DNA of 64,000 nt from Myxococcales bacterium (GTDB taxonomy: Bacteria; Myxococcota; Myxococcia; Myxococcales; UBA5297). A model generated the notes under the pieces. That model made no database searches and was not told the DNA's origin. It was given only the letters and a program-made list of their open reading frames with translations. Made by a program: the position numbers and the translations under genes. The DNA lies in contig JAVBMV010000007.1 of NCBI GenBank assembly GCA_031552145.1, forward strand, positions 226,486-290,485, read 5' to 3'. The first letter of the stretch is position 1. Each line of letters opens with the position of its first letter. Of this stretch, positions 10,985 to 64,000 are shown piece by piece.

Positions 10985-11094
10985 GACTCCAGAACCTCCC
11001 CGGCTCGACTCCAAATTTGCGCCATCCGGACTCCAGATCATCCCCGACTTGACTCCAAATCGTCCCCGGCCTAGCCTCCAAATCGTCCCTTTTC
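10985..11094 (+). repeat. Five tandem ~22-bp direct repeats (iteron-like) ending at the ATPase start codon
   Basis: Units start at 10985, 11007, 11029, 11051 and 11073/4: GACTCCAGAACCTCCCCGGCTC / GACTCCAAATTTGCGCCATCCG / GACTCCAGATCATCCCCGACTT / GACTCCAAATCGTCCCCGGCCT / (A)GCCTCCAAATCGTCCCTTTTCG. Consensus GACTCCARATC.TCCCCGG. Confidence 0.8.
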
Positions 11095-20541: not shown

Positions 20542-20801
20542 CGCTTCTCCTTGCGAGAGAACACATTTGCCCACCGTGTCGCACACTTGTGGCTATCACA
20601 GGCGCAGGAAGGAGAGAAGCGTGGGGGAACGGTGCCGAGAAGAGATGCCAAATCATTGCCCGCGGCGGCGCCAAGCTCCAATTCGCGGATTGAGCGTTGA
20701 GGCGGAAGCCATATTCCAATGACGATTGCCCTGTCTGCGAAAATCCCCTAACATCCCTCGTTTCACATGCTGTGAGGATGCTGGATAGAGCGGGAGTGAA
20801 C

Positions 20802-32054: not shown

Positions 32055-32083
32055 TTGTGTCAGTACTCTCGGGAGGCTAAGAT
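32055..32083 (+). promoter_or_regulatory. Putative sigma70-like promoter for the ATPase gene at 32120
   Basis: TTGTGT (32055-32060), 17-nt spacer, TAAGAT (32078-32083), in an AT-rich patch. Imperfect inverted repeat CTAAGAT...ATCTTGG overlaps the -10. GAGG lies 7 nt before ATG 32120. Confidence 0.35.
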
Positions 32084-32119
32084 GTTTTACGTTATCTTGG
32101 CTCTCTAAATGAGGCAACC

Positions 32120-37568: not shown

Positions 37569-37580
37569 TAGTCTTTCTCC

Positions 37581-40104: not shown

Positions 40105-41277
40105 TCAGCACAACTCGCGAATCGAGCGCGCGCGGATCCTCGGGGCAAGCTCGAAGCTCTCGGCGCCAGCGTGGAGGACCTCAATGCGCTCTAGCTTCAG
40201 ATCGGCCTGGGCGTTGCGCATCGAGGGCGTGACCTTGGGGCTGTCCGTATATTTCACCTCGAACCCTAGTCGCTCTCCGCCGCGCACGATGAGCAGATCC
40301 AGCTCCGCGCCCGAGTGGGTTCGCCAAAAGAAGCACTCGTTGTCGCGCGCGCCCAAGTGCTGGGTAATCTGCTCGATGGCGAAGCCCTCGAAGGAGGCAC
40401 CCAGCTTGGGGTGACGCTCCAGCTCGCGCCTGTTGCCTATATCGAGCAGGGAGTGCAGGAGCCCGCTGTCGCGCAGGTAGAGCTTGGGCGACTTGACCAC
40501 CCGCTTTCTTAGATTTTCATGCCAAGGGCGCAGTTGGCGGACCATGAAGGTCTGCTCGAGCGCGTCGCAGTAGCCTCGTACGGTGTTGTCGTTGACGCTC
40601 ATGGAGCGCCCCAACTCGGACCAGTTGAGGAGCTGGCCATGCAGGTGCGCCAGCATGGTCCAGAAGCGCTCCAGTGACTTGGAGGCTATCCTCAGCCCAA
40701 GCTGCGCGAGGTCGCGCTCGAGGAAGGTGCGGATGAACTCGCGGCGCCACGATGCGCTCGTCGAGAGAGTGCGGGCGGTAAAGGAACGAGGAAAGCCTCC
40801 GCGAAGCCAGAGGTCGGCGAGGCGGTTGGGCCCTACCTCTCCGAGGTTGAAGCCCGACAGCTCGTGGTAGGCGATGCGGCCGGCGAGCGACTCGCTGCTC
40901 TGGTGCAGCAGATCGCCGCTGGCGCTGCCCAGGAGCAGGAAGCGTGCGCGCAGCGGACGGCGATCCACGAGCACGCGGAGGCTGGGGAAGAGCTCCGGGC
41001 GCCGCTGGATCTCGTCTATGACCACGAGCCCGCGCAGCCCCTCCAGGGCGAGCATGGGGTTCTCTAGCCGCGCCAAATCTCTCGGATCCTCGCAATCGAA
41101 CCAGGTGCCCTGCTTGCTGGCGGCGAAGAGCTCGCGCGCGAGGGTGGTCTTGCCCACTTGACGTGCCCCTAGGAGCGCGACGGCTGGGTGCTGTTTCAAG
41201 AGGCGCGCCACGAATAGGCGGTGTTTGTCTCTGTCGAGCATACCCTGAATATTCGCAGTCAGGCTCTGAATATTCAA
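40105..41277 (-). CDS. AAA+ ATPase with C-terminal DUF4143-type PD-(D/E)xK nuclease-like domain
   Basis: Walker A GARQVGKTTL; Walker B VVIDEIQ; C-terminal GAELDLLIVRGGERLGFEVKY. The track start at 41277 is TTG; ATG 41241 (MLDRDKHRLF) is an equally plausible start. Confidence 0.8.
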   Translation of the reverse strand: MNIQSLTANIQGMLDRDKHRLFVARLLKQHPAVALLGARQVGKTTLARELFAASKQGTWFDCEDPRDLARLENPMLALEGLRGLVVIDEIQRRPELFPSLRVLVDRRPLRARFLLLGSASGDLLHQSSESLAGRIAYHELSGFNLGEVGPNRLADLWLRGGFPRSFTARTLSTSASWRREFIRTFLERDLAQLGLRIASKSLERFWTMLAHLHGQLLNWSELGRSMSVNDNTVRGYCDALEQTFMVRQLRPWHENLRKRVVKSPKLYLRDSGLLHSLLDIGNRRELERHPKLGASFEGFAIEQITQHLGARDNECFFWRTHSGAELDLLIVRGGERLGFEVKYTDSPKVTPSMRNAQADLKLERIEVLHAGAESFELAPRIRARSIRELC

Positions 41278-41481
41278 GGTCAGAGATCGCGATTTTCACT
41301 CTGAAGTCTGCAGGTATGCACCGGAGATGGATGCAGGTCACTCCCTGCTGGTCAGGCCCTGCCTGCAGGGGCCGATGGAGCGGCGCCGGGCGCGGATCCT
41401 CGGGGCTAGCTCGAAGCTCGGCGCTTGCGTGGCTCTCTCTCCGCCCTGCCGGCTCGAAAGATGCCACTAGGAAAGAACTCG

Positions 41482-50012: not shown

Positions 50013-50891
50013 ATGAGTCAGCAGAGGCCGCATCGTTTCATTACAAACGATGCGGCCTTTTGCGATCTATTGGGGCTGCTCGCGAAGGAGCGCGCCTTCG
50101 CGCTCGACACCGAGGCGAACAGCTTCTTCGTCTATTACGAGCGCGTCTGCCTGGTGCAGCTCTCCACGCGGGCGGAGGACTTCATCGTCGACCCCTTCGC
50201 CGTCGACCTGAAGCCCCTCGGGCCGCTCCTGGCTGACCCCGCCATCGAGAAGGTGCTCCACGCCGCGGACTATGATCTGCGCTGCCTGGACCGCGACTAT
50301 GGCTTCCGGGTGGCCAATCTCTTCGACACCATGCTCGCCGCGCGCCTCGCGGGGGCCAAGGAGTTGGGGCTCGCGGCGCTGGTGAAGGCGCGCTTCGGGG
50401 CCACCCTGTCGAAGAAGTATCAGCGCAGCGACTGGGGGCAGCGGCCGCTCACGGAGGAGCAGCTCGCTTACGCGACGCTCGACACCCAATACCTGCTCGC
50501 GCTGCGCGACCAGCTCGGCGCCGAGCTCGCCGCCGCCGGGAAGATGGATGAGGCCGGGCGCCAGTTCGAGCGGCAGTGCGCCTGTCGCTATCGGAAGAAG
50601 CCGTTCGATGTGAACGGCTTTCGGCGCCTGCAGGGCTTCAGGCAGCTCTCGCCCCAAGGGCGCGAAGTGGCCAAGGCGCTCTATCTGCTGCGCGAGGAGA
50701 AGGCGCGCGAATATGACCGACCTCCCTTCAAGATCTATGGCGACACCGTGATCGTCGAGTTGGCCCAGCGGATGCCCGCGAGCCTCGCCGAAGTGGAGAA
50801 GGTTCCGGGACTGGGGAAGTCTACGCTCGGGCGGATGGGGGAGGCGATAGTGGTGGCTTGCGCTGGCGGAGCGGGGCAGGCGGGGCAATAA
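50013..50891 (+). CDS. rnd: Ribonuclease D-like 3'-5' exonuclease with HRDC domain
   Basis: DEDDy motifs FALDTEAN, LHAADYDL and YATLDTQYL. C-terminal HRDC-like segment. Confidence 0.8.
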   Translation: MSQQRPHRFITNDAAFCDLLGLLAKERAFALDTEANSFFVYYERVCLVQLSTRAEDFIVDPFAVDLKPLGPLLADPAIEKVLHAADYDLRCLDRDYGFRVANLFDTMLAARLAGAKELGLAALVKARFGATLSKKYQRSDWGQRPLTEEQLAYATLDTQYLLALRDQLGAELAAAGKMDEAGRQFERQCACRYRKKPFDVNGFRRLQGFRQLSPQGREVAKALYLLREEKAREYDRPPFKIYGDTVIVELAQRMPASLAEVEKVPGLGKSTLGRMGEAIVVACAGGAGQAGQ

Positions 50892-50919
50892 AAAACGCCC
50901 GCCGATTGCTCGGCGGGCG
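50887..50919 (-). terminator. Rho-independent terminator of the minus-strand Cys-repeat/RCC1 gene
   Basis: 9-bp stem CGCCCGCCG (50896-50904) / CGGCGGGCG (50911-50919), loop ATTGCT. On the minus strand it is followed by TTTTTTATT (plus-strand A-run 50887-50895). It overlaps the rnd stop codon. Confidence 0.7.
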
Positions 50920-50945: not shown

Positions 50946-53900
50946 CTATGGCACGGCTATTGGCGTCGGGTTTGCTATCTTGAATCCGCGCACGTCTGAA
51001 GCCGTATTGGAGTTGTTTATTCCCAGGATGCCGTAGTTGTTCTGCCCCCAGCAATAGACTGAGCCATCCGATTTTAGGGCGCAGGTTGAGCGCAGAGAGG
51101 CTACCACCTCCACGACGCCACTGGCGAGATCGGGCAGGGCAATCGCTGCCGCCGATGAAGTTCCAGTGGTCGTGCCAAGTTGGTAATAGGAGTTGCTGCC
51201 CCAACAATGGACGGCACCCGCCACGACGGCGCAGCTGTGGGACTCGGAGGTGGCTAGGCTGCTGATAGTGCCCGTCACCACGTTTATTTGCGCGCCAGCT
51301 TCCGCGGTTCCCCCATTGCCGTTCTGTCCATAAAAGTTGTAGCCGGTGCAGAAGATTGCTCCGTCAGAGGCCCTGGCTGCGCAAGTCCTGGCATAGGAGG
51401 AGTCGCCGATGAAGATCTTCGAGTACGGGACGTTGGGTAGATCGATAGGTGCCGGGGTCTTATTCTTTTCCCAACAGTGGACGCCGCCCGCTGCTGGCGC
51501 GACACACAGATGCATGCGGCCGCCAGCGATGGCCGTTACGCCCGTATCGTAGCCGACAAGATCGATGGGGGTGCTCGTGCTCGTGCAGGGGAGGCCCTCC
51601 TCGGGCTCCGCATTTCCCCCGGTCCAAGCGCAGTATCCCCAACACTTCACGCCTCCGGTATTAGTTAACGCACAAGTGACGTCGTTGCCGACAGCTACAT
51701 CCGTCGCCGTCCAAGAGGTCTGCCCCACGATATCGGTGGGGGCGCCCTGGTCTGACGGGTTGGGAACTGCAAGTCCATCGCCGAGTGCACCGTTCGCGGC
51801 TTTGCCCCAGCACTTAACGATGCCGGTTGTGGTCACCAGACAGCCGTGGGTATTGGTGGACGGGGCAATCTTGGCGATTTGATAGCCAGTGTTTTGGACA
51901 GCGACTGGATAGTACTTGTTGGTGGTGCCGCCGTCGCCTAATTGTTTGCCGGTTCCGATACCCCAACAGTATGCCGTCCCAGAGTCTTTAAGCACGGCGC
52001 AAATGTTGTAGTACCCGCTGCTGTAGATGTGCGCGATCTGCTCGCACTTGCCGCTGGCCCCTGGGCCCTTGAGGAAGCCCGGCAGACATGTGCAAGCGCC
52101 GCTAAGGCACTGGGACGTTGTCGCTCCCAGAGTCGCCGCGCAGTCGATGGCGGGCGATCCGCAAACATTGAGCGTGTCGAGCACGCAGGTGTTGCCTTCC
52201 TTGTGGTGGGTCGAGAGGCAGGTGGCCACTTCGCAGGTTCCTCCCGCGAGGCAGTTGGCCGTGGCGACGCCCTCGGCCGCGGTGCAGTCAGTCCCGCCCG
52301 CGCCGCAATACGTCCCGTCGTCCGCCATGCAGAGGTTGTTACCAAAGATGGTCACTATGTGGAAATCGGGCTTGCAAGTAAGTGCCTTACACTGCCCGCC
52401 TGCGGCGCACTCCAAGGAGGCTGCGTTGGGGAACTGGTCGACGCAGTTGACATTCTCCACCCCGCAGTGCTCGGCGTCGTCGGGAAGGCAGGTGAAGGTA
52501 GCGCCGACGTAATAGTAGTCGTCGTCGCAGGTGAGCGGCTTGCACGTGCCGCCAGCGAGACAGTCGGCGGTGGCGACACCGGCGGCGGTGGTGCAGTCAA
52601 TCTGGGCGGGGCCGCAGTGCTCGCTATCATCCGCGGCACAGCCGTTGCCGCTGATGTGGAAGTCGAGGTTGCAGGTGAGCGCCTTGCAGATGCCCGCGTC
52701 GCAGTCGACGGTGGCGGCGTTGGTGAGGGCAGTGCAGTCGGCCTCGGCCTCGCCGCAGGCGGTGTTGGTGTCCGGCGCGCAGCCGAGGTTCTTGAGGTGG
52801 TAGTCCGCGTCGCAGCCGGTCGCCTCGCAGTTTTCGTTGTTGCAGATGGCGGTGGCGACGCCGATGATCTCGGTGCAGTTGACCTGGCTGGGCCCACAAT
52901 GCTGGGCGTCGTTGGCGATGCAGGTATTGCCGTCGATGTGGAAACCGGGGTCGCAGGTGAGCGCCTTGCATCGCCCGCCCGCGAGGCACTGGGCCGTCAC
53001 GACGCCTTCGAGCGCGGTGCAGTCGATCTGGCTTCCGCCACAATGCTGAGCGTCGTCGGCGGCGCAGTCGGCCCCGGCGATGTGGAAGTCGACAAGGCAG
53101 CTCAGCGCCTTGCAGAGGCCGAGGTCGCACCGGGCGCTCTCGACGCCAGCGGCGGTCATGCAGTTGGCCTCGCCGGTGCCACAGAGCGTGGGGCTATCCT
53201 GGATGCAGGCGTCGCTCTTGAAGTGATAGCCCGGGTCGCAGGTGAGCGCCTTGCAGGTTCCACCTGTGACGCAGGAGGCGGTGGCGACACCGGCAATCGC
53301 CTCGCAGTTGGTTTCGCTGGTGCCGCAGGCCGAGGGGGAATCCGGGATACAGGCGTTGTTCTTCAGGTGATAGTTGGCCTTGCAGGTATCGACCTTGCAA
53401 AGTGCGTTGACGCAGCTGGTCGAGGCCGCGTTGGGATTGGCGGTCTCGCAGTTGAGTTCGGTCGCGCCGCAGGCGGTGGCGCTATCGGGCAGGCAGGCGA
53501 AGTTCTTCAGGTGGAAGTTGGCCTTGCAGGAGGTGGCCTGGCAGTTGCCGAAGGTGCAGACGGTAGCGGCGGCCCCCGCGGCCGTCGTGCAGTTGGTTTC
53601 GCTGACGCCGCAGAGGGTGGCGCTGTCGGCCACACAGGTGTTGTCCTTCAGGTGGAAATTAGCCTTGCAGGCCGTGACCCGGCAGGCGCCCGCGTCGCAG
53701 ATGGTCGCGGCGGCGTTGGGGTTGGTGGCGCCACAGTTGGTCTCGCTGACACCGCAGACGGTGGTGGAGTCGGGGATGCAGGCGTTGCCGCGAAGGTGGT
53801 AGCCGGAATTGCACGTGTCGACCTTGCAGAGGCCGCTGACGCAGGAGGTGGTGGCCGCGTAGGGGATGGCGGCGCAGTTCACCTCGGCGGCACCGCATGC

Positions 53901-55100
53901 AGTGTTGCTGTCGACCACGCAGCTATTTCCGTTTTTAGGATGGCGATTGGCGGCGCAGGTATCCACCTTGCAGAGGCCGCCGACGCAGCTCGTCGCCGTG
54001 GCGCCCGTAATCCCGGTGCAGTCGGCCTCGGCCTCGCCGCAGAGCACGTTGCTGTCGGCGATGCAGAGACCGCCTTTGAGGTGATAGTTCGCGGCGCAAG
54101 CGTCGATCTTACAGGCGCCGCTGATACAGGAGGTGGCCGCGGCGTGGGGCAGAACCTCACAGCTGACCGGCGGGATGCCGCAGGCGGAGGCGCTGTCGGC
54201 CACACAGGTGTTCTGCGCGACATGAAAGTTGGGCCTGCAGTTCTCTACCTTGCACGCGCCCGCCACACAGGAGGTGGCGGTGGTATTGGCGATGAGAGTG
54301 CAGTTCTCCACCATGGCGCCGCAAGCGGTGACGCTATCCGCGGCGCAGGCGTTGTTCTTCAAGTGGTAGTTGGCGTCGCAGCGCTCGATGCGGCAGAGAC
54401 CCTCTTCGCAGGTGACATCATCGACGCCGTCGAGCGCGGTGCAGTCGACGCCGGAAGGGCCGCACCCTTCGGCGCTGTCGGGAAGGCACTCGCTGCCTTC
54501 GAGGTGGTGAGCCGACTCGCACAAGGCGATCTTGCAGGCGCCGCTCTCGCAGGTAGCGCTGGCGACGCCGGGCAGGTCCGTGCAGTCGACCGCGCCCGCG
54601 CCACAAGCCCTCTCCGTATCGGGTTCGCAGACCGCGCCCTCGACGTGGTAGTTGGCCTTGCATGTGTCGGCCATGCAGGCTCCTTGAACACAGGAGGCAG
54701 TGGCGATCCCGACGCCTCTCTTGCAGTTGGTGCAGCGGTCGCCGCAGCAGGAGGCGGTGTCGTTTGCCACGCAGGCCTCGCCCTCTGCGTGGAAGCCGCT
54801 CTTGCACTCATGAGTACAGGCGCCGCCGAGACAGAGAGCATCGGCGTTGGCTGGAGGCGTGCACTTGGCGCAGTCGTTGCCGCAGCAAGAGACGTCGCCG
54901 TTGGGCACACAGAGGTTTCCTTGGCGATGGAAACCCGGGTCGCAGGTAAAGCCACAGATGCCGTCCTCGCAGAGCACGGCGCCATGTTCAGGCGCGGTAC
55001 ATCGAGCGCAGGGGTCGTCGTTGACACTGGTCTCCTCTCCGCAGCCGGTCAGAGAGAAGAGTCCAAGAAGGGGAAGCAGTGCAGCCAGGGTGTTGCGCAT
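50946..55100 (-). CDS. Lipoprotein: ~21 tandem six-Cys (~45-aa) repeats fused to a C-terminal 7-bladed RCC1-like beta-propeller (1384 aa)
   Basis: GGAGG RBS before ATG 55100. Lipoprotein signal MRNTLAALLPLLGLFSLTGCGEE. Repeat unit: CG....(D/N)C(T)...G(V)A(T)A(S)C..G.CK...C.(A)N(Y/F)H(L)....C..D. RCC1 blades include HSCAVVAGAVHCWGSNSYYQLG and STCALKSDGSVYCWGQNNYGILG. The track start at 55295 adds 65 non-signal residues. Confidence 0.9.
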   Translation of the reverse strand: MRNTLAALLPLLGLFSLTGCGEETSVNDDPCARCTAPEHGAVLCEDGICGFTCDPGFHRQGNLCVPNGDVSCCGNDCAKCTPPANADALCLGGACTHECKSGFHAEGEACVANDTASCCGDRCTNCKRGVGIATASCVQGACMADTCKANYHVEGAVCEPDTERACGAGAVDCTDLPGVASATCESGACKIALCESAHHLEGSECLPDSAEGCGPSGVDCTALDGVDDVTCEEGLCRIERCDANYHLKNNACAADSVTACGAMVENCTLIANTTATSCVAGACKVENCRPNFHVAQNTCVADSASACGIPPVSCEVLPHAAATSCISGACKIDACAANYHLKGGLCIADSNVLCGEAEADCTGITGATATSCVGGLCKVDTCAANRHPKNGNSCVVDSNTACGAAEVNCAAIPYAATTSCVSGLCKVDTCNSGYHLRGNACIPDSTTVCGVSETNCGATNPNAAATICDAGACRVTACKANFHLKDNTCVADSATLCGVSETNCTTAAGAAATVCTFGNCQATSCKANFHLKNFACLPDSATACGATELNCETANPNAASTSCVNALCKVDTCKANYHLKNNACIPDSPSACGTSETNCEAIAGVATASCVTGGTCKALTCDPGYHFKSDACIQDSPTLCGTGEANCMTAAGVESARCDLGLCKALSCLVDFHIAGADCAADDAQHCGGSQIDCTALEGVVTAQCLAGGRCKALTCDPGFHIDGNTCIANDAQHCGPSQVNCTEIIGVATAICNNENCEATGCDADYHLKNLGCAPDTNTACGEAEADCTALTNAATVDCDAGICKALTCNLDFHISGNGCAADDSEHCGPAQIDCTTAAGVATADCLAGGTCKPLTCDDDYYYVGATFTCLPDDAEHCGVENVNCVDQFPNAASLECAAGGQCKALTCKPDFHIVTIFGNNLCMADDGTYCGAGGTDCTAAEGVATANCLAGGTCEVATCLSTHHKEGNTCVLDTLNVCGSPAIDCAATLGATTSQCLSGACTCLPGFLKGPGASGKCEQIAHIYSSGYYNICAVLKDSGTAYCWGIGTGKQLGDGGTTNKYYPVAVQNTGYQIAKIAPSTNTHGCLVTTTGIVKCWGKAANGALGDGLAVPNPSDQGAPTDIVGQTSWTATDVAVGNDVTCALTNTGGVKCWGYCAWTGGNAEPEEGLPCTSTSTPIDLVGYDTGVTAIAGGRMHLCVAPAAGGVHCWEKNKTPAPIDLPNVPYSKIFIGDSSYARTCAARASDGAIFCTGYNFYGQNGNGGTAEAGAQINVVTGTISSLATSESHSCAVVAGAVHCWGSNSYYQLGTTTGTSSAAAIALPDLASGVVEVVASLRSTCALKSDGSVYCWGQNNYGILGINNSNTASDVRGFKIANPTPIAVP

Positions 55101-55275
55101 TGTCGCCTCCGAAACGTGTGCAGCCGATGAAGTCGCCGGTACGCCGACGATGATGTAACCGCGGAAGTAGAGCACAAGCGGAGGGTCGATGTGAAGAGAT
55201 GTAGGAGAGGGAGGCCACCGCCTCCGGGCGCATAGATGTAGGGCTGGCGGGAAGATGAGCGCGGAGACAGGAGGC

Positions 55276-55950
55276 TCAGAAAAAGACCAGCCCAAGGGCG
55301 GCGTTGGGGAAGAGCCCTCCCTCCAGATCGATACGACGACCGTCTTCGCGCCAATGCCTAATGGAGTAACCCAGGTATATCTCCGGAAAGAGAGCGAAGC
55401 TCCGAGAGAGGTATATCAGGTAGCCCACCGACGCGCCGACGACCAGAAAACTCACGTCTGGTACGCGCTCGAAAATACCCAGATAGCCATCCAAGTGCTC
55501 ATAGCGAAGGCTGGGGCCGAAGACGAGTTGGTCGCGCTCCCAAAGGTCGATCCCAATAAGCATGGGCAACGCCACCATCCAGGACTCCATCGCGTTGCTG
55601 CGCAACTGCGGGTTGAGCGCGACGCCGACACGAAGCGCGTCCTCGTCATCGGGCAAGCGCAGGGCCACCTTTATATCGACGCCGACATCATCGAGGCTAA
55701 AACGTACCGCGCCGTCGACCCTGGAAGAAATACCAAACCGCGCGGCCATCTCCAGGTTGGGCAGTAGCGCGACATCAGTTCTGCCGTCGTCGATCGCGGG
55801 GCTTGGAGCGGCAGAGAGCGCCGGAGCAATTGTCGCTTGCCACACCCCTTTCTCGATAGGGCGCGCCGTGGTCAAGGTAGAGTGGGAGAGGCAAGCGCTC
55901 GCGGAGAGTGTCCAGAGTGCTATGGGGAGCAGCAACGGTCTGCCAACCAT
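55276..55950 (-). CDS. Small outer-membrane beta-barrel-like lipoprotein (hypothetical)
   Basis: GGAGGG RBS. N-terminus MVGRPLLLPIALWTLSASAC. Alternating-hydrophobic strands. C-terminal ...NAALGLVFF (aromatic terminus typical of OMPs). Confidence 0.6.
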   Translation of the reverse strand: MVGRPLLLPIALWTLSASACLSHSTLTTARPIEKGVWQATIAPALSAAPSPAIDDGRTDVALLPNLEMAARFGISSRVDGAVRFSLDDVGVDIKVALRLPDDEDALRVGVALNPQLRSNAMESWMVALPMLIGIDLWERDQLVFGPSLRYEHLDGYLGIFERVPDVSFLVVGASVGYLIYLSRSFALFPEIYLGYSIRHWREDGRRIDLEGGLFPNAALGLVFF

Positions 55951-55964
55951 TTATTCCCTCCGAG

Positions 55965-56672
55965 CTAGAAGCTGAGCGCTGTATATGCGGCCGACAACGA
56001 GAGACCAAGCGTGAAGGGAAGATCCGCGGACTCTGTAGCGGAGATGGAGTTCTCATGGACCCTGTCATAAAACCTACCGACGCGCCAGATATATAAAAAC
56101 ATTGCGTGTGCCGACGCCCCGATAGACCAGTTTTGCGACAATGCCCAGTCCTTTCCAAAACCCACCTTGGCGCCGACGCCTCCCTCACTCCAATGGCCAA
56201 TTTCTCTGACTGTGTAGGTCCCTGCATAGTTGTCGGTTTTGTTTTGCCAGTTGGCGACAAGAAGAGCGAGGTCAATGTGGTAGCCGTCGGAAAAGTGCAG
56301 CCCGATGAAAGGCCCGGCGCCATAGGTGGCGGTCCACGCGTTCCGGGAGCCTTCCTCGGGGGGAAGATCATCGAAAGAGAAGCGCCCGAAGGCATATGCG
56401 CCAAGTGTGAGTCGTTCCGAAAGCTTGATTCCGACGGCGAGGTTGGAATGTATTGGCAGCCCCGCTTCGAGCTCGTGCCCTGGATATCGTTCGGGGTCCA
56501 GATGGTAGCCCTGAGACCAGAGGCCCAGCCCCACCTCGCCACGCAGAACTAAGCTGCAGCAGCGGGGCGGGGGTTGGTGGAGTTCTCGGTAGTCTGAGTC
56601 GGGCGATTGCCCTAGGGCAACGCCATTCCAAAACAGAAAGAACGATGTAAGCAGAGTAGCCGCGTAGCGCAT
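55965..56672 (-). CDS. Small outer-membrane beta-barrel-like protein (hypothetical)
   Basis: Signal peptide MRYAATLLTSFFLFWNGVALGQ. Strand-like alternation, Gly/aromatic girdle residues. C-terminal ...SAAYTALSF. Confidence 0.6.
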   Translation of the reverse strand: MRYAATLLTSFFLFWNGVALGQSPDSDYRELHQPPPRCCSLVLRGEVGLGLWSQGYHLDPERYPGHELEAGLPIHSNLAVGIKLSERLTLGAYAFGRFSFDDLPPEEGSRNAWTATYGAGPFIGLHFSDGYHIDLALLVANWQNKTDNYAGTYTVREIGHWSEGGVGAKVGFGKDWALSQNWSIGASAHAMFLYIWRVGRFYDRVHENSISATESADLPFTLGLSLSAAYTALSF

Positions 56673-56681
56673 GGCCGCACC

Positions 56682-56957
56682 TTATGGGCAATTGGAAAGC
56701 CCGGGTGGTGGCATGGCCTGGCCGTAGCTGTTTCCGCCCCAGCATTTGACCATGTGATAGGTGTCAATCGCACACGAGTGGCTTTGTCCCGCGCCGATGC
56801 GCATTGTATCGGATGTGCCATAGTCCTGTTGGATGCCTTTGTGCACAACCTTTTCTGTTGTGAGCCTTTGGCATCCTGCAGTGAGGAGGAATGTACCCAC
56901 CCAGGCCGCGATGATACTGGCCGCTGCCCAACTGCCCCGTCGACGAGGTGAGTCCAT
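56682..56957 (-). CDS. Mini-lipoprotein carrying a single RCC1-like blade (91 aa)
   Basis: AAGGAG lies 6 nt before ATG 56957. Lipobox FLLTAGC. The mature part contains GAGQSHSCAIDTYHMVKCWGGNSYGQ. 9 nt separate it from the next gene. It could also be a remnant fragment. Confidence 0.5.
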   Translation of the reverse strand: MDSPRRRGSWAAASIIAAWVGTFLLTAGCQRLTTEKVVHKGIQQDYGTSDTMRIGAGQSHSCAIDTYHMVKCWGGNSYGQAMPPPGLSNCP

Positions 56958-57030
56958 AACGACTCCTTGCTGGCAAGGAGCGCGGGCCATGTAGCCACGC
57001 GCTCGGGTGGTACATCGCTCTACAGAGCAC

Positions 57031-57060
57031 CAAATATCCAAAAGCATGGGCGCTTGTCAA
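57031..57060 (-). promoter_or_regulatory. Putative sigma70-like promoter for the mini-lipoprotein/barrel/RCC1 gene cluster
   Basis: On the minus strand: TTGACA (57060-57055), 18-nt spacer, TATTTG (57036-57031). It lies just downstream of the terminator of the preceding gene. Confidence 0.35.
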
Positions 57061-57123: not shown

Positions 57124-57155
57124 AAAAAAGTGCCCCGGGGATAACTCCGGGGCAC
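57124..57155 (-). terminator. Rho-independent terminator of the 57188-59659 gene
   Basis: 9-bp stem GTGCCCCGG (57130-57138) / CCGGGGCAC (57147-57155), 8-nt loop. On the minus strand it is followed by TTTTTT (plus-strand A-run 57124-57129). Confidence 0.75.
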
Positions 57156-57187: not shown

Positions 57188-59659
57188 TCACGGAGTGGTT
57201 GGTGGCGCGTCGATCAGCGGGGTCGGCGTTTCGACAATCTTTGCCGTGGTATCGGTGCCGTTTGCATCGCCCGCTCCATTGAGGCATCCGAGCACGCCGA
57301 AGGCGTTTCGGCCCCAGCAATAGGCGGCTCCTTCGGCGGTGAGCACGCAGCTTCCGTTGTAGGCTGTGACTGTCGCTGCGACGCCAGCCTCGAACCCAAT
57401 GACGTCTAGCGGCGTCGTGGAGTTGGCGGTGCCATTACCCAGTTGTCGATTCGTGTTAGTGCCCCAACACTTAGCTCCGCCGTTGACTACGGCGCAGGAG
57501 TGCGAAAAGGCGATGGACATGGAGCTGATTGGGGCTGGATCGAAGACGGTGACCAATTTGGCGGTGTTGGGGTGGCTCGTCTCCGTGCCATTGCCGTTTT
57601 GGCCCGTAGTGTTGAACCCCCAGCAATAAATGGAATTGTCGCTCGCCATGGTTGCACAGGCGCGGGTCTGCCCGCTCCCCCCTGCGGACCCAGCGACAAG
57701 CTTCGAGATGGCGGCCGTTTTGTCGGGAGCGCTCTCGGGCAGCTGAATGATGGGTATAAGTGTTCCCACATTGTAGCAGATGACCCCGTCGTCTCCGACG
57801 CCGATACAGAAAACACGTCGGCTGACCGCCAGCTTGGAAACCCCGCTAGAATAGTCAAAGCCGCCAATAGCGGATTTGAAGTCGACCGGTGCGTGCACGT
57901 CGTCGTCGAAGCCGTAAAGGAAGAGGCTGTCTCCCCAGACCTTGACGCCTCCCGTTGTCGTTAGCGCTACGGTATAGCCCTGTCCGACGCCGACGTATTC
58001 CGCCTTCCAGGTGGCGTCATTCACTTTGACGGGAGTCTTTCTGTCGTCAGTAGTATTGTCGCCCACGCCCCCATATTGATTCTGTCCCCAACAGTAGACG
58101 TCATCATTCGCATCGATCATGCAGCTGTGGTGCCACGTCGAGGGTGCCACCATCTTGACGCCGGCGGTCGCACCCACTACCTGCACGGGTACGGAACTGT
58201 TCGTGGTCGTGTCATTCCCGAGAGCCCCGAATTCGTTGCGTCCCCAGCATTTAAGCGCGCGCGTGGTCTTTAGGATGGCACACATTACGAAATCGCCCGT
58301 GCCGACGAGCTCGGCGATGGCGTCGCAATTGCCATCCGGACCGGTCAGCATTCCAGGCTTGCAGACCGGTGCGCTGCAGAGGCCGCTCTCGCAGGGTGCT
58401 GTCTGGTAGGGAGTCAATCCCACAGTGCAGTCCACCGCGGTGGGGCCGCAGGCCGTGGAGGTGTCGGCCACGCAGTTGGCGCCTACTGGATGGAAGTCGA
58501 GCTCGCACTCGGTCGCCCTGCAGGCGCCATTCTCGCAGATTGCCTCGAAGACATTCGCCGCGGCGTAGCAATCCTCCTGGTGGGCCCCGCAGGAGTCGAC
58601 GGTATCGGGGGCGCAGGCGTTGTTGGCGACGTGGTAATTGGCGATGCACGTATTGATGACGCAGGCGGCGCCCACGCAGCTCGCGGTGGCCACGCCCGCG
58701 CCGCTCGTGCAGTCGAGGGCGGCGGCGCCGCAGGAGGTGGCGCTGTCGGCAACGCAGGTGGCGCCGCTCAGATGGTGGGCGGGCTTGCAGCTCTGTGCCA
58801 CGCAGGCGCCCGCGCTGCAACGCACGGCGCCGACGCCGGGAAGCGCGGTGCAGTCATTGTCGTGCGCGCCGCACGCGAGCTTGCTGTCGAGGACGCAGGC
58901 GTTGCCGTCGAGATGGTAGTTGGCGCCGCAGGTGAGCGCCTTGCAGACGCCCGCTTCGCATGTGGCGCTGGCGACCCCCGTGGTCGCTCCGCAGTCGACG
59001 AGGTTGGCGCCACAGGCGGCGCCGGTGTCGGCCGCGCAGGTGATGCCCTTGAGGTGGAAATCGGCGTCGCAGGTGAGCGCCTTGCAGCGACCCTGCACGC
59101 AGGAGGCCGTGGCCACGCCGTTGGCGGCGGTGCAGTCGGTGGCGGAGAGGCCACAGGCGGTGGCGCTGTCGGCCTCGCAGGCGCCCCCTTTAGGGTGGAA
59201 GTTGTCGAGGCAGGAGAAGGCCTTGCACGCTCCATCGATGCAATCGACGCCGGCTACGCCGGTGCCCTTGGTGCAATCGGTGGCGGCGGCGCCGCAGGCG
59301 GTGCGGCTGTCGAGCGCGCACTCGCCCTGGGCGAGGTGATAGCCCGCGGCGCAGCTCTCGGCCACGCAGCGCCCCTCCGCGCAGGTCGCGGCGCTCACGC
59401 CCTTCTTCGCGGCGCAGTTGCGGCACTCGGCGCCACAACACTCGGCGGTGTTGTTCGCGACGCATTGGTCGCCAGAGCGAATGTATCCTTCGTCACAGGT
59501 GAAGCCGCAGATCTTCTTCTCGCAGAGAACCTTGCCGTGCTCGGGCGCGACACAGCTCTTGCAGGGATCCGCCGAGGTCTCCGTTTCGCCACAGGCCGAA
59601 AGACCGAGCGAGGAGAAGAGCAAGAACGACGATATCAGGGGGGTCGATGTGAGGCGCAT
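57188..59659 (-). CDS. Lipoprotein: ~9 six-Cys repeats fused to a C-terminal RCC1-like propeller (823 aa); paralogue of 50946-55100
   Basis: ATG at 59659 gives the lipoprotein signal MRLTSTPLISSFLLFSSLGLSACGETE. The N-terminus is colinear with the paralogue (DPCKSCVAPEHGKVLCEKKICGFTCDEGY vs DPCARCTAPEHGAVLCEDGICGFTCDPGF). RCC1 blades include HSCAVVNGGAKCWGTNTNRQLG. The track ORF 57188-63358 runs upstream through antisense sequence and is not all coding. Confidence 0.9.
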   Translation of the reverse strand: MRLTSTPLISSFLLFSSLGLSACGETETSADPCKSCVAPEHGKVLCEKKICGFTCDEGYIRSGDQCVANNTAECCGAECRNCAAKKGVSAATCAEGRCVAESCAAGYHLAQGECALDSRTACGAAATDCTKGTGVAGVDCIDGACKAFSCLDNFHPKGGACEADSATACGLSATDCTAANGVATASCVQGRCKALTCDADFHLKGITCAADTGAACGANLVDCGATTGVASATCEAGVCKALTCGANYHLDGNACVLDSKLACGAHDNDCTALPGVGAVRCSAGACVAQSCKPAHHLSGATCVADSATSCGAAALDCTSGAGVATASCVGAACVINTCIANYHVANNACAPDTVDSCGAHQEDCYAAANVFEAICENGACRATECELDFHPVGANCVADTSTACGPTAVDCTVGLTPYQTAPCESGLCSAPVCKPGMLTGPDGNCDAIAELVGTGDFVMCAILKTTRALKCWGRNEFGALGNDTTTNSSVPVQVVGATAGVKMVAPSTWHHSCMIDANDDVYCWGQNQYGGVGDNTTDDRKTPVKVNDATWKAEYVGVGQGYTVALTTTGGVKVWGDSLFLYGFDDDVHAPVDFKSAIGGFDYSSGVSKLAVSRRVFCIGVGDDGVICYNVGTLIPIIQLPESAPDKTAAISKLVAGSAGGSGQTRACATMASDNSIYCWGFNTTGQNGNGTETSHPNTAKLVTVFDPAPISSMSIAFSHSCAVVNGGAKCWGTNTNRQLGNGTANSTTPLDVIGFEAGVAATVTAYNGSCVLTAEGAAYCWGRNAFGVLGCLNGAGDANGTDTTAKIVETPTPLIDAPPTTP

Positions 59660-59851: not shown

Positions 59852-62800
59852 ATGCGCTCTTTCCCAAAGTTCCTCTCGCTCACCCTGTTGGTGGCATCGC
59901 TCACGGCCTGCGAGAAGGACCAGATCAATCTGACGCCAGACGTGGGGACGGACGCGGACGCGGGCGACGCTTCCCACGACGCCGATGTGGGGCAGTGCCT
60001 TCCCCCGGACGAAATATGCGGCGAGGAGTGCTGCGAGGCGCCCGGGCGCTGTGTGGCGGGCGAGTGCGTGACCTGCGAGCGCCAATGCGAGGGCAAGCGA
60101 TGCGGCCCCGACGGCTGCGGCGGCACCTGCGGTGAATGCGCGGAAGAGGAGCGCTGTGTCGATGGGCTCTGCGAGAAAGATTGCGCGGACCCCGAGACGG
60201 ACGCGGCCTTTTGCATGCGCCTGATGCGCTGCGGCCAGACGACGGCCCAGGATCGGTGTGGCGAAACGCGGACGGTCGATTGCACGGAAATGCTGGGGTG
60301 TACCTCGACGCAGCGATGCGCGGCCGCGGGGGATTGCGTCTGCGCCGACACCCCCGAAGACGGCGACTACTGTCCGCTGGCCAAGTCGAAGCTCCACGTC
60401 GAGTGCGGCGCCGGCGAGGTCGAAGATCAATGTGGGGCGCTGCATACCTTCGATTGTGGCGATCCCTGCATCGGCGCGGCCTATTGCGGGCCGAGCAACG
60501 TCTGCGACTGTCCCGAGGAAACCGAGGCGGAGCTCTGCGCGCGCCACGGCAAAGACTGCGGCAGGCTGCAGGCGCCCGATCTGTGCGGCAGAGTGGTGGT
60601 AATACCCGATTGCGCCGAGGCGCTCGAGCGGGAAGCTTGCGCCTCGCCGAACCATTGCCTCTATAATGTTTGTGTCCCGACGACGGCCCCGCCCGCCAAT
60701 AACGAATGTGCCGAGGCGGAGCCGCTCTGGCTCTATAATGGCAAAGTGGAGTTCGACGCGGACACCAGCAAAGCGACCGACTCGGGCGACGGCAGGTGCA
60801 ATCGCTATTCGGCCTTCGACTTGGTCTACGAACTGCACCTCGATCGGGCCATGGCGCTCACCATCGAGAGCACCCCCACGTCGGCGGTCACACTTCCCAA
60901 CCTCTATGTCCAGAGCAGCTGCGGCAGCGCGCTGCACGAGCTGGGCTGCATCGCCACGGGCGAGCTCTCGACCAGAGCGGTGTTGCAGGTGCCGCGCGCG
61001 GGGCCGGGCAGCGTCTATCTCTGGGTAGATGGCTATGGAATCAAAGGACATGGCGCCGGGCCCCAGCATGTGGAGATCACGGGCCTCCCCGTCGATGCCC
61101 CCACCAACGACACCTGCGCCGAGGTCGAGCGCCACGTCCTGACCCCGGCGCGGAGCGCCCTCTCCCTGAATGGTTCCACCGCGCTGGCGCTCAATGAGCT
61201 GACGCCCTCCTGCGCTCCGGCGCCGTGGGATGGAAAGGAGCTTATCTATGCCATCACGACCCCGACCGACGGTCCCCGTACCTTTAGCGCCAAGCTCACC
61301 CCGGCGCCCAACTCCTTCTATTGGCCGACGCTCTCCATCCGGCGGGGCTGTGAGGACACAGAGGAGGAGCTCCTCTGCCATGTGAGCGCCGACTCCGGGC
61401 TCATGGAGGCGCTGCTGCCCGAAGTCGAGCCGGGGAGCACGCTCTTTTTGGTCGTCGACAGCCACGGCGATCTCACCGGAGATTTCGTGCTGGAGGTGAG
61501 CTCCGGGCCGCGGGGTGCGCCGCCGCTCAACGCCACCTGCGCTTCGCTCGAGGCCAACGCGGCGCAGTTTGTGCCCGTACAGGATCCCGCCGCGCCGCAG
61601 CGTTACTCCTTCATGGGCCATGGAACGGTGAAGGATGCCGCCGACAGCGCCAAGGGGAGCTGCATGGGGGCGACGGGCGGCCGCGACGTTCGTTACCCCA
61701 TCCACATTGGCGCGCAATCCTCCGTCCAGGTGATGGTGGCGCGCGCCTCCTACAGCCTGGGCTATTTGCCGGCGATCTATCTGAGGTCTCAGTGCGAGGG
61801 CGAGGCGGAGGTCGCGGGCAGCTGCGCCGTGGCGACCGAGGCAAACCCGACGGCCACCTTCTTCACCTCGTCGCTCGCCCCGGGCGATTATTACTTGGTG
61901 GTCGATTCCGCCACGGCGGGCGAGGGCGATTTTACGGTCGACCTCTACATCTGGTCGCCGCCCATCGCCAACTCGGCCTGTAACGCCGCGCCCGAATATG
62001 TCCTGACCACCGGCGTCGAGACGCGGATCGTGGGCAATACGCGCGGTGGCGCCAACACTACCGCGAGCAGCTGCAAGCGAGACGCGAGCGCTCGGGAGTT
62101 GGTCTACAAGGTTCAGATGCCCCCCGAGGGCCACTACGACCTGCTCCTGAGCTATCCACGCGTGCGCGGCGCCACCAATCGCCCCTTCATCTCGATCAGG
62201 AGGGATTGTGCCTCCACCGCGGCGGGCAGCGAGATCTATTGCCAGGGACAAGAGACCCTTATCGACGCCGACCATATCGGGTCGGTCGGCACGCTGAAGG
62301 GGGGCGCCACCTACTCCTTCTGGCTGGAGGAGCCGGCGGGAACCGTCAATGGTCTCTTCGAGCTGGAGCTGGTGGCGCTGCGCGCCGGTATTCCGACCCA
62401 TGCGGTCTGTGAGACGGCCGATCCCGTGACGCCCGATCTCGACGCCGGCGGCAGGGTTACGCTCTCGGGCAAGCTGCGGGACACCGCCGACGATTATGTC
62501 GCCAGCTGCGCCGCCTCCTACGGCGCCGACCTGGTCTATCGATTCGACCCGGGCGCGGAGGTGGTCAACTACCGCTTCTCGCTGACGGCGAAGGGGTCGG
62601 ATGACCGCCTCGCCATTTATATCCGCGACACCTGCGCCGAGGGCGCGGCCGACGTGCTCTGCCATGGGCAAGTCACGAGCGCTCTCACGAAGGTCTTCGA
62701 ATACCGAGGGGTGGATAGGCCCTTCTATCTCTTCATCGACACCGTGGAGCCCGCCAACGCCAGCCCCAAGATGGTTGGCGATTTCACGCTCGAGGTGTGG

Positions 62801-64000
62801 GCCAGGCGCAAGGGCGAGCCGCCGCAGAATGATCTGTGCGGCGGGGCGCGCGAGCTCGTGCCCGACGCCGCGACCGGCAAGGTGAGCGTGCGCGACTTCA
62901 CCACCTCGGATGCGAATGGAGATTATATGGGCAGCTGTACGCCGAAGACCGAGGGAGAGAATGCGCCCGACATGGTCTACAAGGTGCACGTGACGAGCCC
63001 GAGCAAGCTCTCGGCCATCCTCGCTACGTCGCGTCTCTTCCCCGACTTCCGCCCCTCCGTCTATATCCGCCGTGAGAATTGCATGGACGAGACGGGCGCG
63101 TCGGAGGTGGCCTGCGCCAACGCGGGCAGCAGCGACGACGTGACCTATGGCATCGCGACGGCCGCGGCGACGGTGAGCCCTGGCTGGTATTATATCTTTG
63201 TGGATGGGGTCGACAGCGCCTCGCACGGCGATGCTTCGCTGGAGGTGCTGGTGAGACCCGTCGCGCCGCTCTCTGACTCCTGCGCGGGCGCGGAGATGGT
63301 CGAGCTGATGGTGCCCGGCAGCGAGCGCATCGAGGGCGACACCTCCGCCGCCACTCACTCGACGCGCTCGGCCTCGCTCTCCTATGGCAACGGCCCCGAC
63401 GTCGTCTACGAGCTGCGCCTGAACGCGGCCGCCCGGCTCGACGCCACGCTCGCCTTCGTGCCCGCCTATGGCATTCCGGTGCTCTACCTGCGCGACGACT
63501 GCACCGGCGCCACGGCGGACGATGAGCTAGGCGCGGTGCGCGGCGCCGACGGCAGCGCCATTTCGCTGAGCCGAACGCTCCCCGCCGGTACCTACTGGAT
63601 CTGGATCGACTCGCACTTGCCGCTCTCTGGCCCCTTCTCGCTGCTGCTCGAGACGACGGCGCTTCCCTCCGCCCCCGCCCATTCGCTCTGCGCCACGCCC
63701 GAGCCGCTGGCCCTGGTGCAGGAGCGGCTCTCCTTCCGCACCTCGACCGTCGCCGGGTCCGACAACGCTTACGGCACGTGCGGCGGCGCCGGAGGCATCG
63801 AGCGCTATTACCTCTTTACGCCGCCGGTGCAGGCGCGGGGCGCCCTGCGGGTGCAGGTGCGGCGCGAGGCGGGGCCCGCCAACTATTCGCCCGTGGTCTA
63901 TCTGAGGAAGGTCTCGTGCGGCGCGGCCATGCCCGAAGAGGAGCTGGCCTGCGCCACTGCCTCGGGCGGGGTGGCGGAGTTCTCCGTGGAGGCGCCCTAC
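59852..64000 (+). CDS. Giant lipoprotein, 3'-truncated by the window edge: ~278-aa Cys-rich head plus 7 complete and 1 partial four-Cys PPC-like modules (not in the supplied ORF track)
   Basis: By my manual translation, frame 2 is open from ATG 59852 to base 64000 (1383 codons, no stop). GGAGG lies 6 nt upstream. Lipoprotein signal MRSFPKFLSLTLLVASLTACEK. The head contains CGPDGCGGTCGEC and 3 x (F/L)CxRxGxxCG...DC units, homologous to the head of 12472-20541. Module examples: FDLVYELHL...PNLYVQSSC...ELGC...GPGSVYLWVDG and GPDVVYELRL...PVLYLRDDC...AGTYWIWIDS. Confidence 0.9.
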   Translation, partial: MRSFPKFLSLTLLVASLTACEKDQINLTPDVGTDADAGDASHDADVGQCLPPDEICGEECCEAPGRCVAGECVTCERQCEGKRCGPDGCGGTCGECAEEERCVDGLCEKDCADPETDAAFCMRLMRCGQTTAQDRCGETRTVDCTEMLGCTSTQRCAAAGDCVCADTPEDGDYCPLAKSKLHVECGAGEVEDQCGALHTFDCGDPCIGAAYCGPSNVCDCPEETEAELCARHGKDCGRLQAPDLCGRVVVIPDCAEALEREACASPNHCLYNVCVPTTAPPANNECAEAEPLWLYNGKVEFDADTSKATDSGDGRCNRYSAFDLVYELHLDRAMALTIESTPTSAVTLPNLYVQSSCGSALHELGCIATGELSTRAVLQVPRAGPGSVYLWVDGYGIKGHGAGPQHVEITGLPVDAPTNDTCAEVERHVLTPARSALSLNGSTALALNELTPSCAPAPWDGKELIYAITTPTDGPRTFSAKLTPAPNSFYWPTLSIRRGCEDTEEELLCHVSADSGLMEALLPEVEPGSTLFLVVDSHGDLTGDFVLEVSSGPRGAPPLNATCASLEANAAQFVPVQDPAAPQRYSFMGHGTVKDAADSAKGSCMGATGGRDVRYPIHIGAQSSVQVMVARASYSLGYLPAIYLRSQCEGEAEVAGSCAVATEANPTATFFTSSLAPGDYYLVVDSATAGEGDFTVDLYIWSPPIANSACNAAPEYVLTTGVETRIVGNTRGGANTTASSCKRDASARELVYKVQMPPEGHYDLLLSYPRVRGATNRPFISIRRDCASTAAGSEIYCQGQETLIDADHIGSVGTLKGGATYSFWLEEPAGTVNGLFELELVALRAGIPTHAVCETADPVTPDLDAGGRVTLSGKLRDTADDYVASCAASYGADLVYRFDPGAEVVNYRFSLTAKGSDDRLAIYIRDTCAEGAADVLCHGQVTSALTKVFEYRGVDRPFYLFIDTVEPANASPKMVGDFTLEVWARRKGEPPQNDLCGGARELVPDAATGKVSVRDFTTSDANGDYMGSCTPKTEGENAPDMVYKVHVTSPSKLSAILATSRLFPDFRPSVYIRRENCMDETGASEVACANAGSSDDVTYGIATAAATVSPGWYYIFVDGVDSASHGDASLEVLVRPVAPLSDSCAGAEMVELMVPGSERIEGDTSAATHSTRSASLSYGNGPDVVYELRLNAAARLDATLAFVPAYGIPVLYLRDDCTGATADDELGAVRGADGSAISLSRTLPAGTYWIWIDSHLPLSGPFSLLLETTALPSAPAHSLCATPEPLALVQERLSFRTSTVAGSDNAYGTCGGAGGIERYYLFTPPVQARGALRVQVRREAGPANYSPVVYLRKVSCGAAMPEEELACATASGGVAEFSVEAPY

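Follow-up and report, generated by a model that had tools for sequence, protein, structure and literature searches.

Two predicted stalk-and-head lipoproteins with CPL1-like repeats and RCC1-like propellers, and the small envelope-protein genes between them, in a Myxococcales bacterium

The transit of lipoproteins to the cell surface outside the Neisseria-type Slam systems is still poorly understood, and a locus in which small genes for putative outer-membrane barrels stand between two large lipoprotein genes raises the question of whether such neighbours form a transport route of their own. One locus of this kind lies in a 64,000-nucleotide (nt) stretch of a Myxococcales genome (GenBank assembly GCA_031552145.1, contig JAVBMV010000007.1, positions 226,486 to 290,485), which is referred to at its full length as the window. 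A preliminary description of its sequence had suggested that two small barrel genes, here called b1 and b2, provide a private export, anchoring or surface-display route for a 1384-amino-acid (aa) lipoprotein. The reading that we regard as probable is plainer: the locus encodes two stalk-and-head outer-membrane lipoproteins together with ordinary, lineage-specific small envelope proteins. According to this reading, two N-terminally lipidated paralogues would be sorted to the outer membrane by the Lol system; in each, a rigid, disulfide-bonded rod of CPL1-like repeats (8 units in one, about 21 in the other) would keep the head at a distance of tens of nanometres from the membrane, and a distal RCC1-like propeller would act as the ligand-binding head, displayed at two different distances. 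In a bacterium of the Myxococcota type the pair would then act at the surface as adhesins or receptors, and the products of three small, fast-evolving genes would at most assist the lipoproteins locally, as partners or anchors, and would not form a dedicated translocator.

The open reading frames (ORFs) of the window were taken from a six-frame list, and the gene models were cross-checked by independent gene calls on two Logan contigs, which carry copies of the locus that are the same or one base apart (identity 100% and 99.99%). The calls on both contigs reproduce products of 823, 91, 235, 224 and 1384 aa. All five ORFs are co-oriented on the minus strand and have the coordinates given below, save that the listed ORF of the smallest gene, which encodes a mini-lipoprotein, spans 56682–57047. 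Its start codon is placed at the ATG at 56957, which has AAGGAG 5 nt upstream, and not at the ORF start at 57047. The genes, the intergenic gap before the largest of them and the parts of its product are as follows.

57188–59659, minus strand: gene of the paralogous lipoprotein, 823 aa (ORF list, Pfam, repeat and blade counts)
56682–56957, minus strand: gene of the mini-lipoprotein, 91 aa (start codon and Shine-Dalgarno sequence, RCC1_2 match)
55965–56672, minus strand: b1, 235 aa (ORF list and independent gene call)
55276–55950, minus strand: b2, 224 aa (ORF list and independent gene call)
55101–55275, minus strand: 175-nt intergenic gap 5' of the large gene, with GGAGG 5 nt before its ATG (read in the sequence)
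50946–55100, minus strand: gene of the large lipoprotein, 1384 aa, stop codon at 50946–50948 (ORF list, gene call, Pfam)
55041–55100, minus strand: predicted signal peptide of the large protein with lipobox L-T-G-C, Cys20; +2 is Gly and +7 is Val (sequence)
52044–55040, minus strand: Cys-rich stalk, aa 21–1019, a cap and about 21 units (repeat anatomy, DNA repeats, PF21671 in 10 stretches)
50949–52043, minus strand: seven-bladed RCC1-like beta-propeller, aa 1020–1384 (blade motifs, Pfam, PDB matches)

The stalk is the most distinctive part of the large protein. It holds 130 of the 147 Cys and consists of a 44-aa N-terminal cap with six Cys, followed by 18 units with six Cys, two with eight and one that is degenerate. 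The units are 47–48 aa long, keep six Cys in a fixed register, carry a [YF]H signature and conform to the consensus xxDSxTACGAxxxDCTAxxGVAxxxCxxGACKAxxCxxxxHLxGxxC. The preliminary description had the number of units (about 21) and of Cys (about 130) right; its unit of 45 aa is to be lengthened to 47–48, its (N/D)(Y/F)H signature to be relaxed to [YF]H, and its uniform six Cys per unit to be amended for the two units that have eight. Apart from the lipid-bearing residue the Cys count of the large protein is even (130 in the stalk and 16 more), which is consistent with full intramolecular pairing, and the units are predicted to be disulfide-bonded, with three disulfides in each. At the DNA level the repeats recur with a period of 141 or 144 nt and are only 60–75% identical, hence the array must be old. 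The upstream paralogue follows the same order, with a cap, eight Cys units (nine repeats had been counted earlier in this shorter protein) and a seven-bladed RCC1-like propeller.

In Pfam, the stalk of the large protein matches the CPL1-like family PF21671 in 10 stretches, with 176.7 bits and E = 8.6e-53 against a gathering threshold of 27.4 bits, which puts the repeats well outside what chance would give; for the paralogue the score is 78.6 bits. None of the five proteins has an NCBIfam match at E <= 0.1, which excludes the myxococcal Cys-repeat TIGRFAMs, and a PDB search detected no solved relative of the CPL1-like repeat by sequence. In the literature PF21671 (IPR048661) was found only for the fungal secreted, adhesin-like, Cys-rich proteins Cpl1, Cfl1, Dha1 and Dha2. 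Like the window proteins, the fungal CPL1/Cfl1/Dha1 proteins are secreted, and the 47-aa six-Cys unit matches the CPL1-like hidden Markov model (HMM); the fungal proteins, however, are small and have one C-terminal domain, whereas here 8 to about 21 tandem copies are built into a bacterial lipoprotein and fused to a propeller. The eukaryote-like extracellular flavour that was remarked on at the outset thus found a name in this family of fungal adhesin-like proteins. The family is a described one, as the preliminary description had considered that it might be, and it is without an established role in bacteria.

The head was identified by motif, profile and structure matches. The large protein and the paralogue each have seven C-x(8-11)-C-W-G blades, the matches to RCC1 (PF00415, 75.3 bits) and RCC1_2 (PF13540, 85.1 bits) are above threshold, and the closest solved relatives in the PDB are UVR8, HERC1/2 and RCC1, with E down to 2e-22. 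The seven-bladed propeller at the distal end, and with it the picture of a disulfide-rich stalk that presents a propeller, are therefore retained from the preliminary description, the stalk now being made of PF21671 repeats. Between the large protein and its paralogue, identity falls from 54% in the cap to about 41% in the units and to 33% in the propeller. The two represent an anciently duplicated tandem pair with one plan, and heads that are only 33% identical suggest two specificities for the two proteins.

How widespread this plan is was assessed with a search of 5.8 billion protein clusters, which returned only 35 proteins at E <= 1e-10. Besides the window's own two proteins, only one of these (P0004, from an NCBI contig) combines CPL1-like repeats with RCC1. 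P0004 is a lipoprotein of 1829 aa in which three stalk segments lie between and on either side of two propellers, and it shares its N-terminal cap with the window proteins (DPCEKCLAPEHG...). Among the remaining matches, those to the propeller only are large 'alpha-tubulin suppressor-like RCC1' proteins with other repeats, and those to the stalk only have FG-GAP/VCBS, LVIVD-like or no recognisable heads. The COG5184 RCC1-like secreted proteins (for example P0009–P0012, P0014 and P0022) likewise place a seven-bladed propeller in a long multi-domain protein; they use PF11617, Big_9 or cadherin-like repeats where the window proteins use PF21671. A genome scan with the N-terminal cap, which returned neither P0004 nor the window's own genome, gave 19 loci in GTDB genomes, all of them Myxococcota metagenome-assembled genomes (MAGs) and mostly Polyangiales, and an RCC1 propeller occurs in none of the 19. 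In other Myxococcota the stalk module carries FG-GAP/VCBS, LVIVD-like and beta-helix heads, and it behaves as a generic modular presentation device for many heads.

Where the two lipoproteins reside was approached through their N-termini. Both fit the canonical lipobox [LVI][ASTVI][GAS]C, the large protein with L-T-G-C (FSLTGC) and the paralogue with L-S-A-C. Lipidation, an outer-membrane or surface location and a role as adhesin or receptor are what we infer for them. The inner leaflet of the outer membrane is the default destination of lipoproteins carried by the Lol system, and both could accordingly be periplasmic proteins, or else matrix proteins, that are not displayed on the surface, with the small genes as unrelated neighbours. 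No known surface-export determinant was found by Pfam or NCBIfam, and some lipoproteins of Myxococcus xanthus are indeed secreted to the matrix (PMC3222651). In that species +2 Lys marks inner-membrane lipoproteins and +7 Ala marks matrix lipoproteins (PMC3222651). Both features are absent from the large protein and the paralogue, whose +7 residues are Val and Ser, respectively, which speaks against the inner membrane and the matrix, with the proviso that rules from M. xanthus are extrapolated here to another organism. Moreover, a rod of about 21 units with a propeller would probably exceed the width of the periplasm, and the repeat has its relatives among extracellular adhesin-like proteins. 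For these reasons we regard a location in the periplasm or the matrix as unlikely.

The three small genes that lie between the two lipoprotein genes are separated by 9 nt (mini-lipoprotein to b1) and 14 nt (b1 to b2), with Shine-Dalgarno-like sequences inside these short gaps (AAGGTG before b1 and GGAGGG before b2). That four co-oriented minus-strand genes, from the mini-lipoprotein to the large lipoprotein, succeed each other with gaps of 9, 14 and 175 nt had been described before, and the ORF list and both Logan gene calls agree with the genes, while the gaps are exact. The G+C content at third codon positions (GC3) is 0.61–0.71 in the mini-lipoprotein, b1 and b2 and 0.69–0.71 in the two propeller halves, as against 0.84–0.87 in the stalk halves and 0.86–0.95 in flanking housekeeping genes; within the window, total G+C reaches its minimum (0.59) at 56–58 kb.

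The mini-lipoprotein has a signal peptide, a lipobox of the permissive kind (L-T-A-G-C) and one RCC1-like blade (RCC1_2, E 6.4e-7). The single blade reported earlier therefore stands; as to the lipobox, T-A-G-C in this protein, like A-S-A-C in b2, fits the permissive PROSITE-type pattern only. This blade shares 37% identity with blade 6 of the large protein, and at the nucleotide level it has no similarity to either propeller and no copy elsewhere. A recent pseudogene fragment is ruled out by the lack of nucleotide similarity to the propellers, and an ancient propeller fragment is a possible origin. Apart from the lipid-bearing residue, the mature protein contains three Cys, hence an odd number, with one in the penultimate position (...SNCP). 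In b1 a vicinal pair, Cys38-Cys39, is found in a Pro-rich segment right after the signal peptide. An intermolecular disulfide between the two proteins is conceivable from these positions.

The b1 product has a signal peptide of the signal peptidase I (SPase I) type and a C-terminus (...AAYTALSF) that, like that of b2, terminates in Phe. It matches the autotransporter beta-domain PF03797 with 29.2 bits, above the cut-off of 26, over 112 of the 255 profile positions. A word-indexed homologue search with b1 and b2 returned matches to themselves only, and when 1.84 billion representatives were searched exhaustively with phmmer, b1 gave a single relative, P0003, at E 6e-4; compared pairwise, the two are 27% identical over residues 41–230 (E 7e-12). 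P0003 (227 aa) is encoded in tandem with a 40%-identical copy of 234 aa on a 3.7-kb contig (L006:2-2477, Logan SRR21023576), where both b1-like genes are preceded by a gene for a partial protein with the C-terminus ...FGCSAAGGTAAGWGLVAMTVAWLLRSGRAAPRR, which resembles a sorting tag of Gly-Cys, a transmembrane (TM) segment and an Arg-rich tail and is not recognised as MYXO-CTERM by NCBIfam. The two relatives of b1 match OMP_b-brl (PF13505; best 7.4e-5, in two of the three family members). A scan of metagenomes with the b1-family profile returned one short contig with an uninformative context, and the profile has no match in the PDB at E 10. On this evidence b1 appears to belong genuinely to a family of small outer-membrane beta-barrels that is tiny and highly divergent.

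The b2 product has a signal peptide ending in ASA|C, compatible with either an SPase I site or a lipobox of the permissive kind. It also has stretches of amphipathic beta periodicity, coding-type GC1, GC2 and GC3 values, and the C-terminus ...ALGLVFF. No homologue was found for it, and searches of Pfam and the PDB relaxed to E 10 gave nothing. It is probably an outer-membrane beta-barrel as well, to judge from its signal peptide, beta periodicity and GLVFF end. No similarity between b1 and b2 was detected by BLASTP or hhalign, and the possibility that they are paralogues was rejected. No alignment could be supplied for structure models since admissible homologues of b1 and b2 are lacking, and the single-sequence AlphaFold2 models (mean predicted confidence, pLDDT, of 37 for b1 and 31 for b2) are unusable. 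With the small 8- to 12-stranded proteins of the MBB clan (PF13505, PF03797), b1 and its relatives have in common an HMM match, a signal peptide and an aromatic residue at the C-terminus; the match of b1 is partial, however, a passenger domain is absent, and b2 matches nothing. The two small beta-barrels of the preliminary description are thus supported for b1, by a profile match above the cut-off, while for b2 the fold is deduced from its sequence only.

The question posed at the outset can now be addressed. If b1 and/or b2 formed a dedicated outer-membrane conduit through which the lipoproteins are flipped or threaded to the cell surface, in the manner of a Slam type XI secretion system (T11SS) or of a split type V system, co-oriented and tightly spaced genes between two cargo-like lipoproteins would be expected, and this is the arrangement found; a published account of Slam likewise has translocator genes adjoining the genes of their lipoprotein cargo (PMC5449769). 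In Slam/T11SS loci, as here, a barrel gene stands beside lipoprotein genes, and b1 is just above the Pfam threshold for an autotransporter beta-domain. The proteins themselves do not bear this out. Slam combines a barrel of about 14 strands (DUF560) with an N-terminal TPR region, and b1 and b2, with mature lengths of about 205–215 aa, are half that size and too small for both; in b1 some 20–40 residues precede the first predicted strand. Pfam gives no match to PF04575/DUF560 SlipAM, TPR, POTRA, ShlB or a passenger domain in either protein, and the best SlipAM score, in one relative of b1, is not significant (E 0.1). Type V secretion is characterised by a passenger with a 12-strand barrel or by a POTRA-bearing 16-strand TpsB, and b1 and b2 have neither. 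The paralogue also has a terminator of its own, which puts it outside the putative unit.

Synteny points in the same direction. Neither b1, b2 nor the mini-lipoprotein was found by tblastn in the 19 GTDB loci or in the contexts of three homologues of the large protein (L003–L005, those of P0007 and P0018 included), and the contexts of P0017, P0037, P0036 and P0008 contain no relative of the three and no small-barrel pair among the called genes. In sum, about 27 loci encode the same repeat stalk, and a relative of b1, b2 or the mini-lipoprotein is present in none of them. The barrel genes, which are near-orphans, do not accompany such lipoproteins elsewhere as far as this could be tested, and the private route proposed in the preliminary description found no support; a dedicated conduit is, of all the readings weighed here, the one with the least likelihood. 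When the 19 GTDB loci were roughly screened for small ORFs that combine a signal peptide with an aromatic residue at the C-terminus, the high-GC DNA made the outcome too noisy for use, and the one candidate inspected (L021) was rejected as a barrel on account of its TM helices.

At two of the stalk loci another kind of neighbour was observed. P0018 and P0036, both with FG-GAP/VCBS and a Cys-repeat stalk, are encoded directly downstream of an OEP-MFP-ABC-MacB operon (with two MacB/FtsX genes) and are followed by an NlpC/P60-like gene (L005:4125-14041 and L029:83-15166, Myxococcales/Archangiaceae MAGs). This synteny might mark an export or processing route of P0018 and P0036.

A second known system bears a closer likeness to the locus. 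For TraA of M. xanthus it is proposed that a distal, lectin-like PA14 domain is presented on a stalk of Cys repeats, and traB, the gene of its envelope partner, overlaps traA in one operon (PMC3325183). The window proteins share with this pair the Cys-repeat stalk, a distal binding domain, a lipid-type anchor, a paralogue, an envelope partner gene and the myxobacterial background. By analogy, the mini-lipoprotein, b1 and b2 could form a TraA/TraB-like complex that holds or clusters recognition receptors, with no part in export; the receptors would perhaps act between cells or between cell and prey, and the partners would perhaps be disulfide-linked. In favour of such a complex are the TraA-like architecture, with the gene of an envelope partner in one operon (PMC3325183), the odd Cys count of the mini-lipoprotein, with its penultimate Cys, and the vicinal pair of b1. 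Between the paralogues the heads are more diverged than the stalks, and on the L006 contig a protein whose tail has Gly-Cys, a TM segment and an Arg-rich end precedes the two b1-like barrels.

The differences from TraA and TraB are, however, considerable. TraA has a C-terminal MYXO-CTERM, whereas the window proteins have an N-terminal lipobox, so that the polarity is reversed; its head is PA14 and its repeat TIGR04201, against an RCC1 propeller and PF21671 here; and TraB has an OmpA domain, which is missing from the barrels of about 215 aa encoded by b1 and b2. Searches of Pfam and NCBIfam with the five proteins gave no match to TIGR04201, PA14, MYXO-CTERM (TIGR03901) or OmpA. The tail of the L006 protein falls outside the NCBIfam MYXO-CTERM model, the only other copies of the locus are identical and offer no polymorphism data, and support from synteny is absent. 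The resemblance to TraA/TraB thus appears to be one of design, not of family, and we consider a receptor complex of this type improbable, slightly more so than a periplasmic or matrix location.

The transcription of the locus is framed by the following signals.

57130–57155, minus strand: intrinsic terminator of the paralogue, with a 9-bp stem of which 8 pairs are GC, and a T-run (terminator scan)
57033–57060, minus strand: sigma-70-like promoter candidate TTGACA-16-GATATT (motif scan)
50887–50919, no strand assigned: intrinsic terminator with a GC hairpin and T-run (read directly; a simple scanner did not list it)

The clean terminator at 50887–50919 and the separate terminator of the paralogue had both been noticed in the preliminary description and were found in place; the former is common to the large gene and to a convergent RNase D-like gene (50013–50891, plus strand). 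The promoter candidate, described earlier as TTGACA-18-TATTTG and read here as TTGACA-16-GATATT, is well placed, yet such sites occur at the frequency of chance (1 found against 1.1 expected, or one per 9.5 kb). What survives of the earlier claim is a well-placed promoter-like site, not one above chance, and its position alone is suggestive. With the mini-lipoprotein starting at 56957, the hexamers are upstream of the gene and not within it. The spacing of 9 and 14 nt makes it likely that the mini-lipoprotein, b1 and b2 are co-translated from one transcript. For the gap at 55101–55275, motif scans detected no sigma-70-like site, no sigma-54-like site and no convincing terminator, Rfam gave no match, and the RNA structure is ordinary (z = -0.21); these scans gave no sign of an RNA element or an internal promoter in this gap. 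The transcript of the small genes could possibly read through into the large gene, or the large gene could be transcribed independently, and the operon structure of the locus is to be taken as a predicted one.

Other genes of the window deserve a brief mention. Three giant ORFs are present at 3–5945 (plus strand), 12472–20592 (minus strand) and 59852–64000 (plus strand), with products of at least 1980, 2706 and, according to the Logan gene call, 2668 aa. A GBD_T9SS_assoc galactose-binding-like domain occurs in two of the three, and the product of 2706 aa has no Pfam or NCBIfam match. The ORF at 20694–22487 (plus strand) encodes a 597-aa protein with two Lcl C-terminal domains (PF07603, E 1.7e-55), predicted to be surface-associated. 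Two ATPase genes of the AAA_14 and DUF4143 type and two of the ATPase_2/AAA_16 type are scattered over the window (11053–12342, plus strand; 40105–41295, minus strand; 32081–33583 and 37572–39134, both plus strand). No tRNA gene was found within the 64 kb.

Some considerations weigh against the reading of two stalk-and-head outer-membrane lipoproteins with ordinary small neighbours. The surface exposure of the lipoproteins is deduced and the length of the rod extrapolated, and the barrel fold of b2 is an unproven deduction from sequence. The synteny test covers distant relatives only, with the context of P0004 outside it. The tight spacing of the small genes between two paralogues also looks like that of a functional module. 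Lastly, at one of the approximately 27 stalk loci the gene of P0037 (L028), a distant relative, is overlapped by 10 nt by a gene for a 210-aa outer-membrane-like protein. P0037 itself is encoded at L028:6001-11288, on a 261-kb contig (Logan ERR12726220), and is a low-GC lipoprotein of 1334 aa with an LVIVD-like N-terminal part and six-Cys repeats of about 47 aa; the 210-aa protein has a signal peptide and a beta-signal-like end (...YQVYVSVGF), no Pfam match and no similarity to b1 or b2.

A bolder possibility is that the mini-lipoprotein, b1 and b2 constitute a lineage-specific module that captures, displays or anchors the stalk-and-head lipoproteins on the surface, in which the unpaired Cys near the C-terminus of the mini-lipoprotein and the vicinal pair of b1 might be linked by a disulfide. 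We hold this to be very unlikely, with scarcely better prospects than the dedicated conduit. If true, it would represent a third independently evolved solution for surface lipoproteins, beside Slam and MYXO-CTERM/TraAB, and one that escaped detection since its components evolve too fast for homology searches.

The presence of CPL1-like stalks in bacterial lipoproteins and the rarity of their combination with RCC1 are in themselves mildly noteworthy, and the locus would gain greater importance only if the small barrels prove necessary for the display of the lipoproteins. If the favoured reading of two stalk-and-head outer-membrane lipoproteins is true, the locus would provide a further example of a recurrent myxobacterial design, in which interchangeable heads are mounted on a lipid-anchored, disulfide-rich stalk, and the recognition of long CPL1-like stalks in bacterial lipoproteins helps to annotate many unnamed giant proteins of the Myxococcota.

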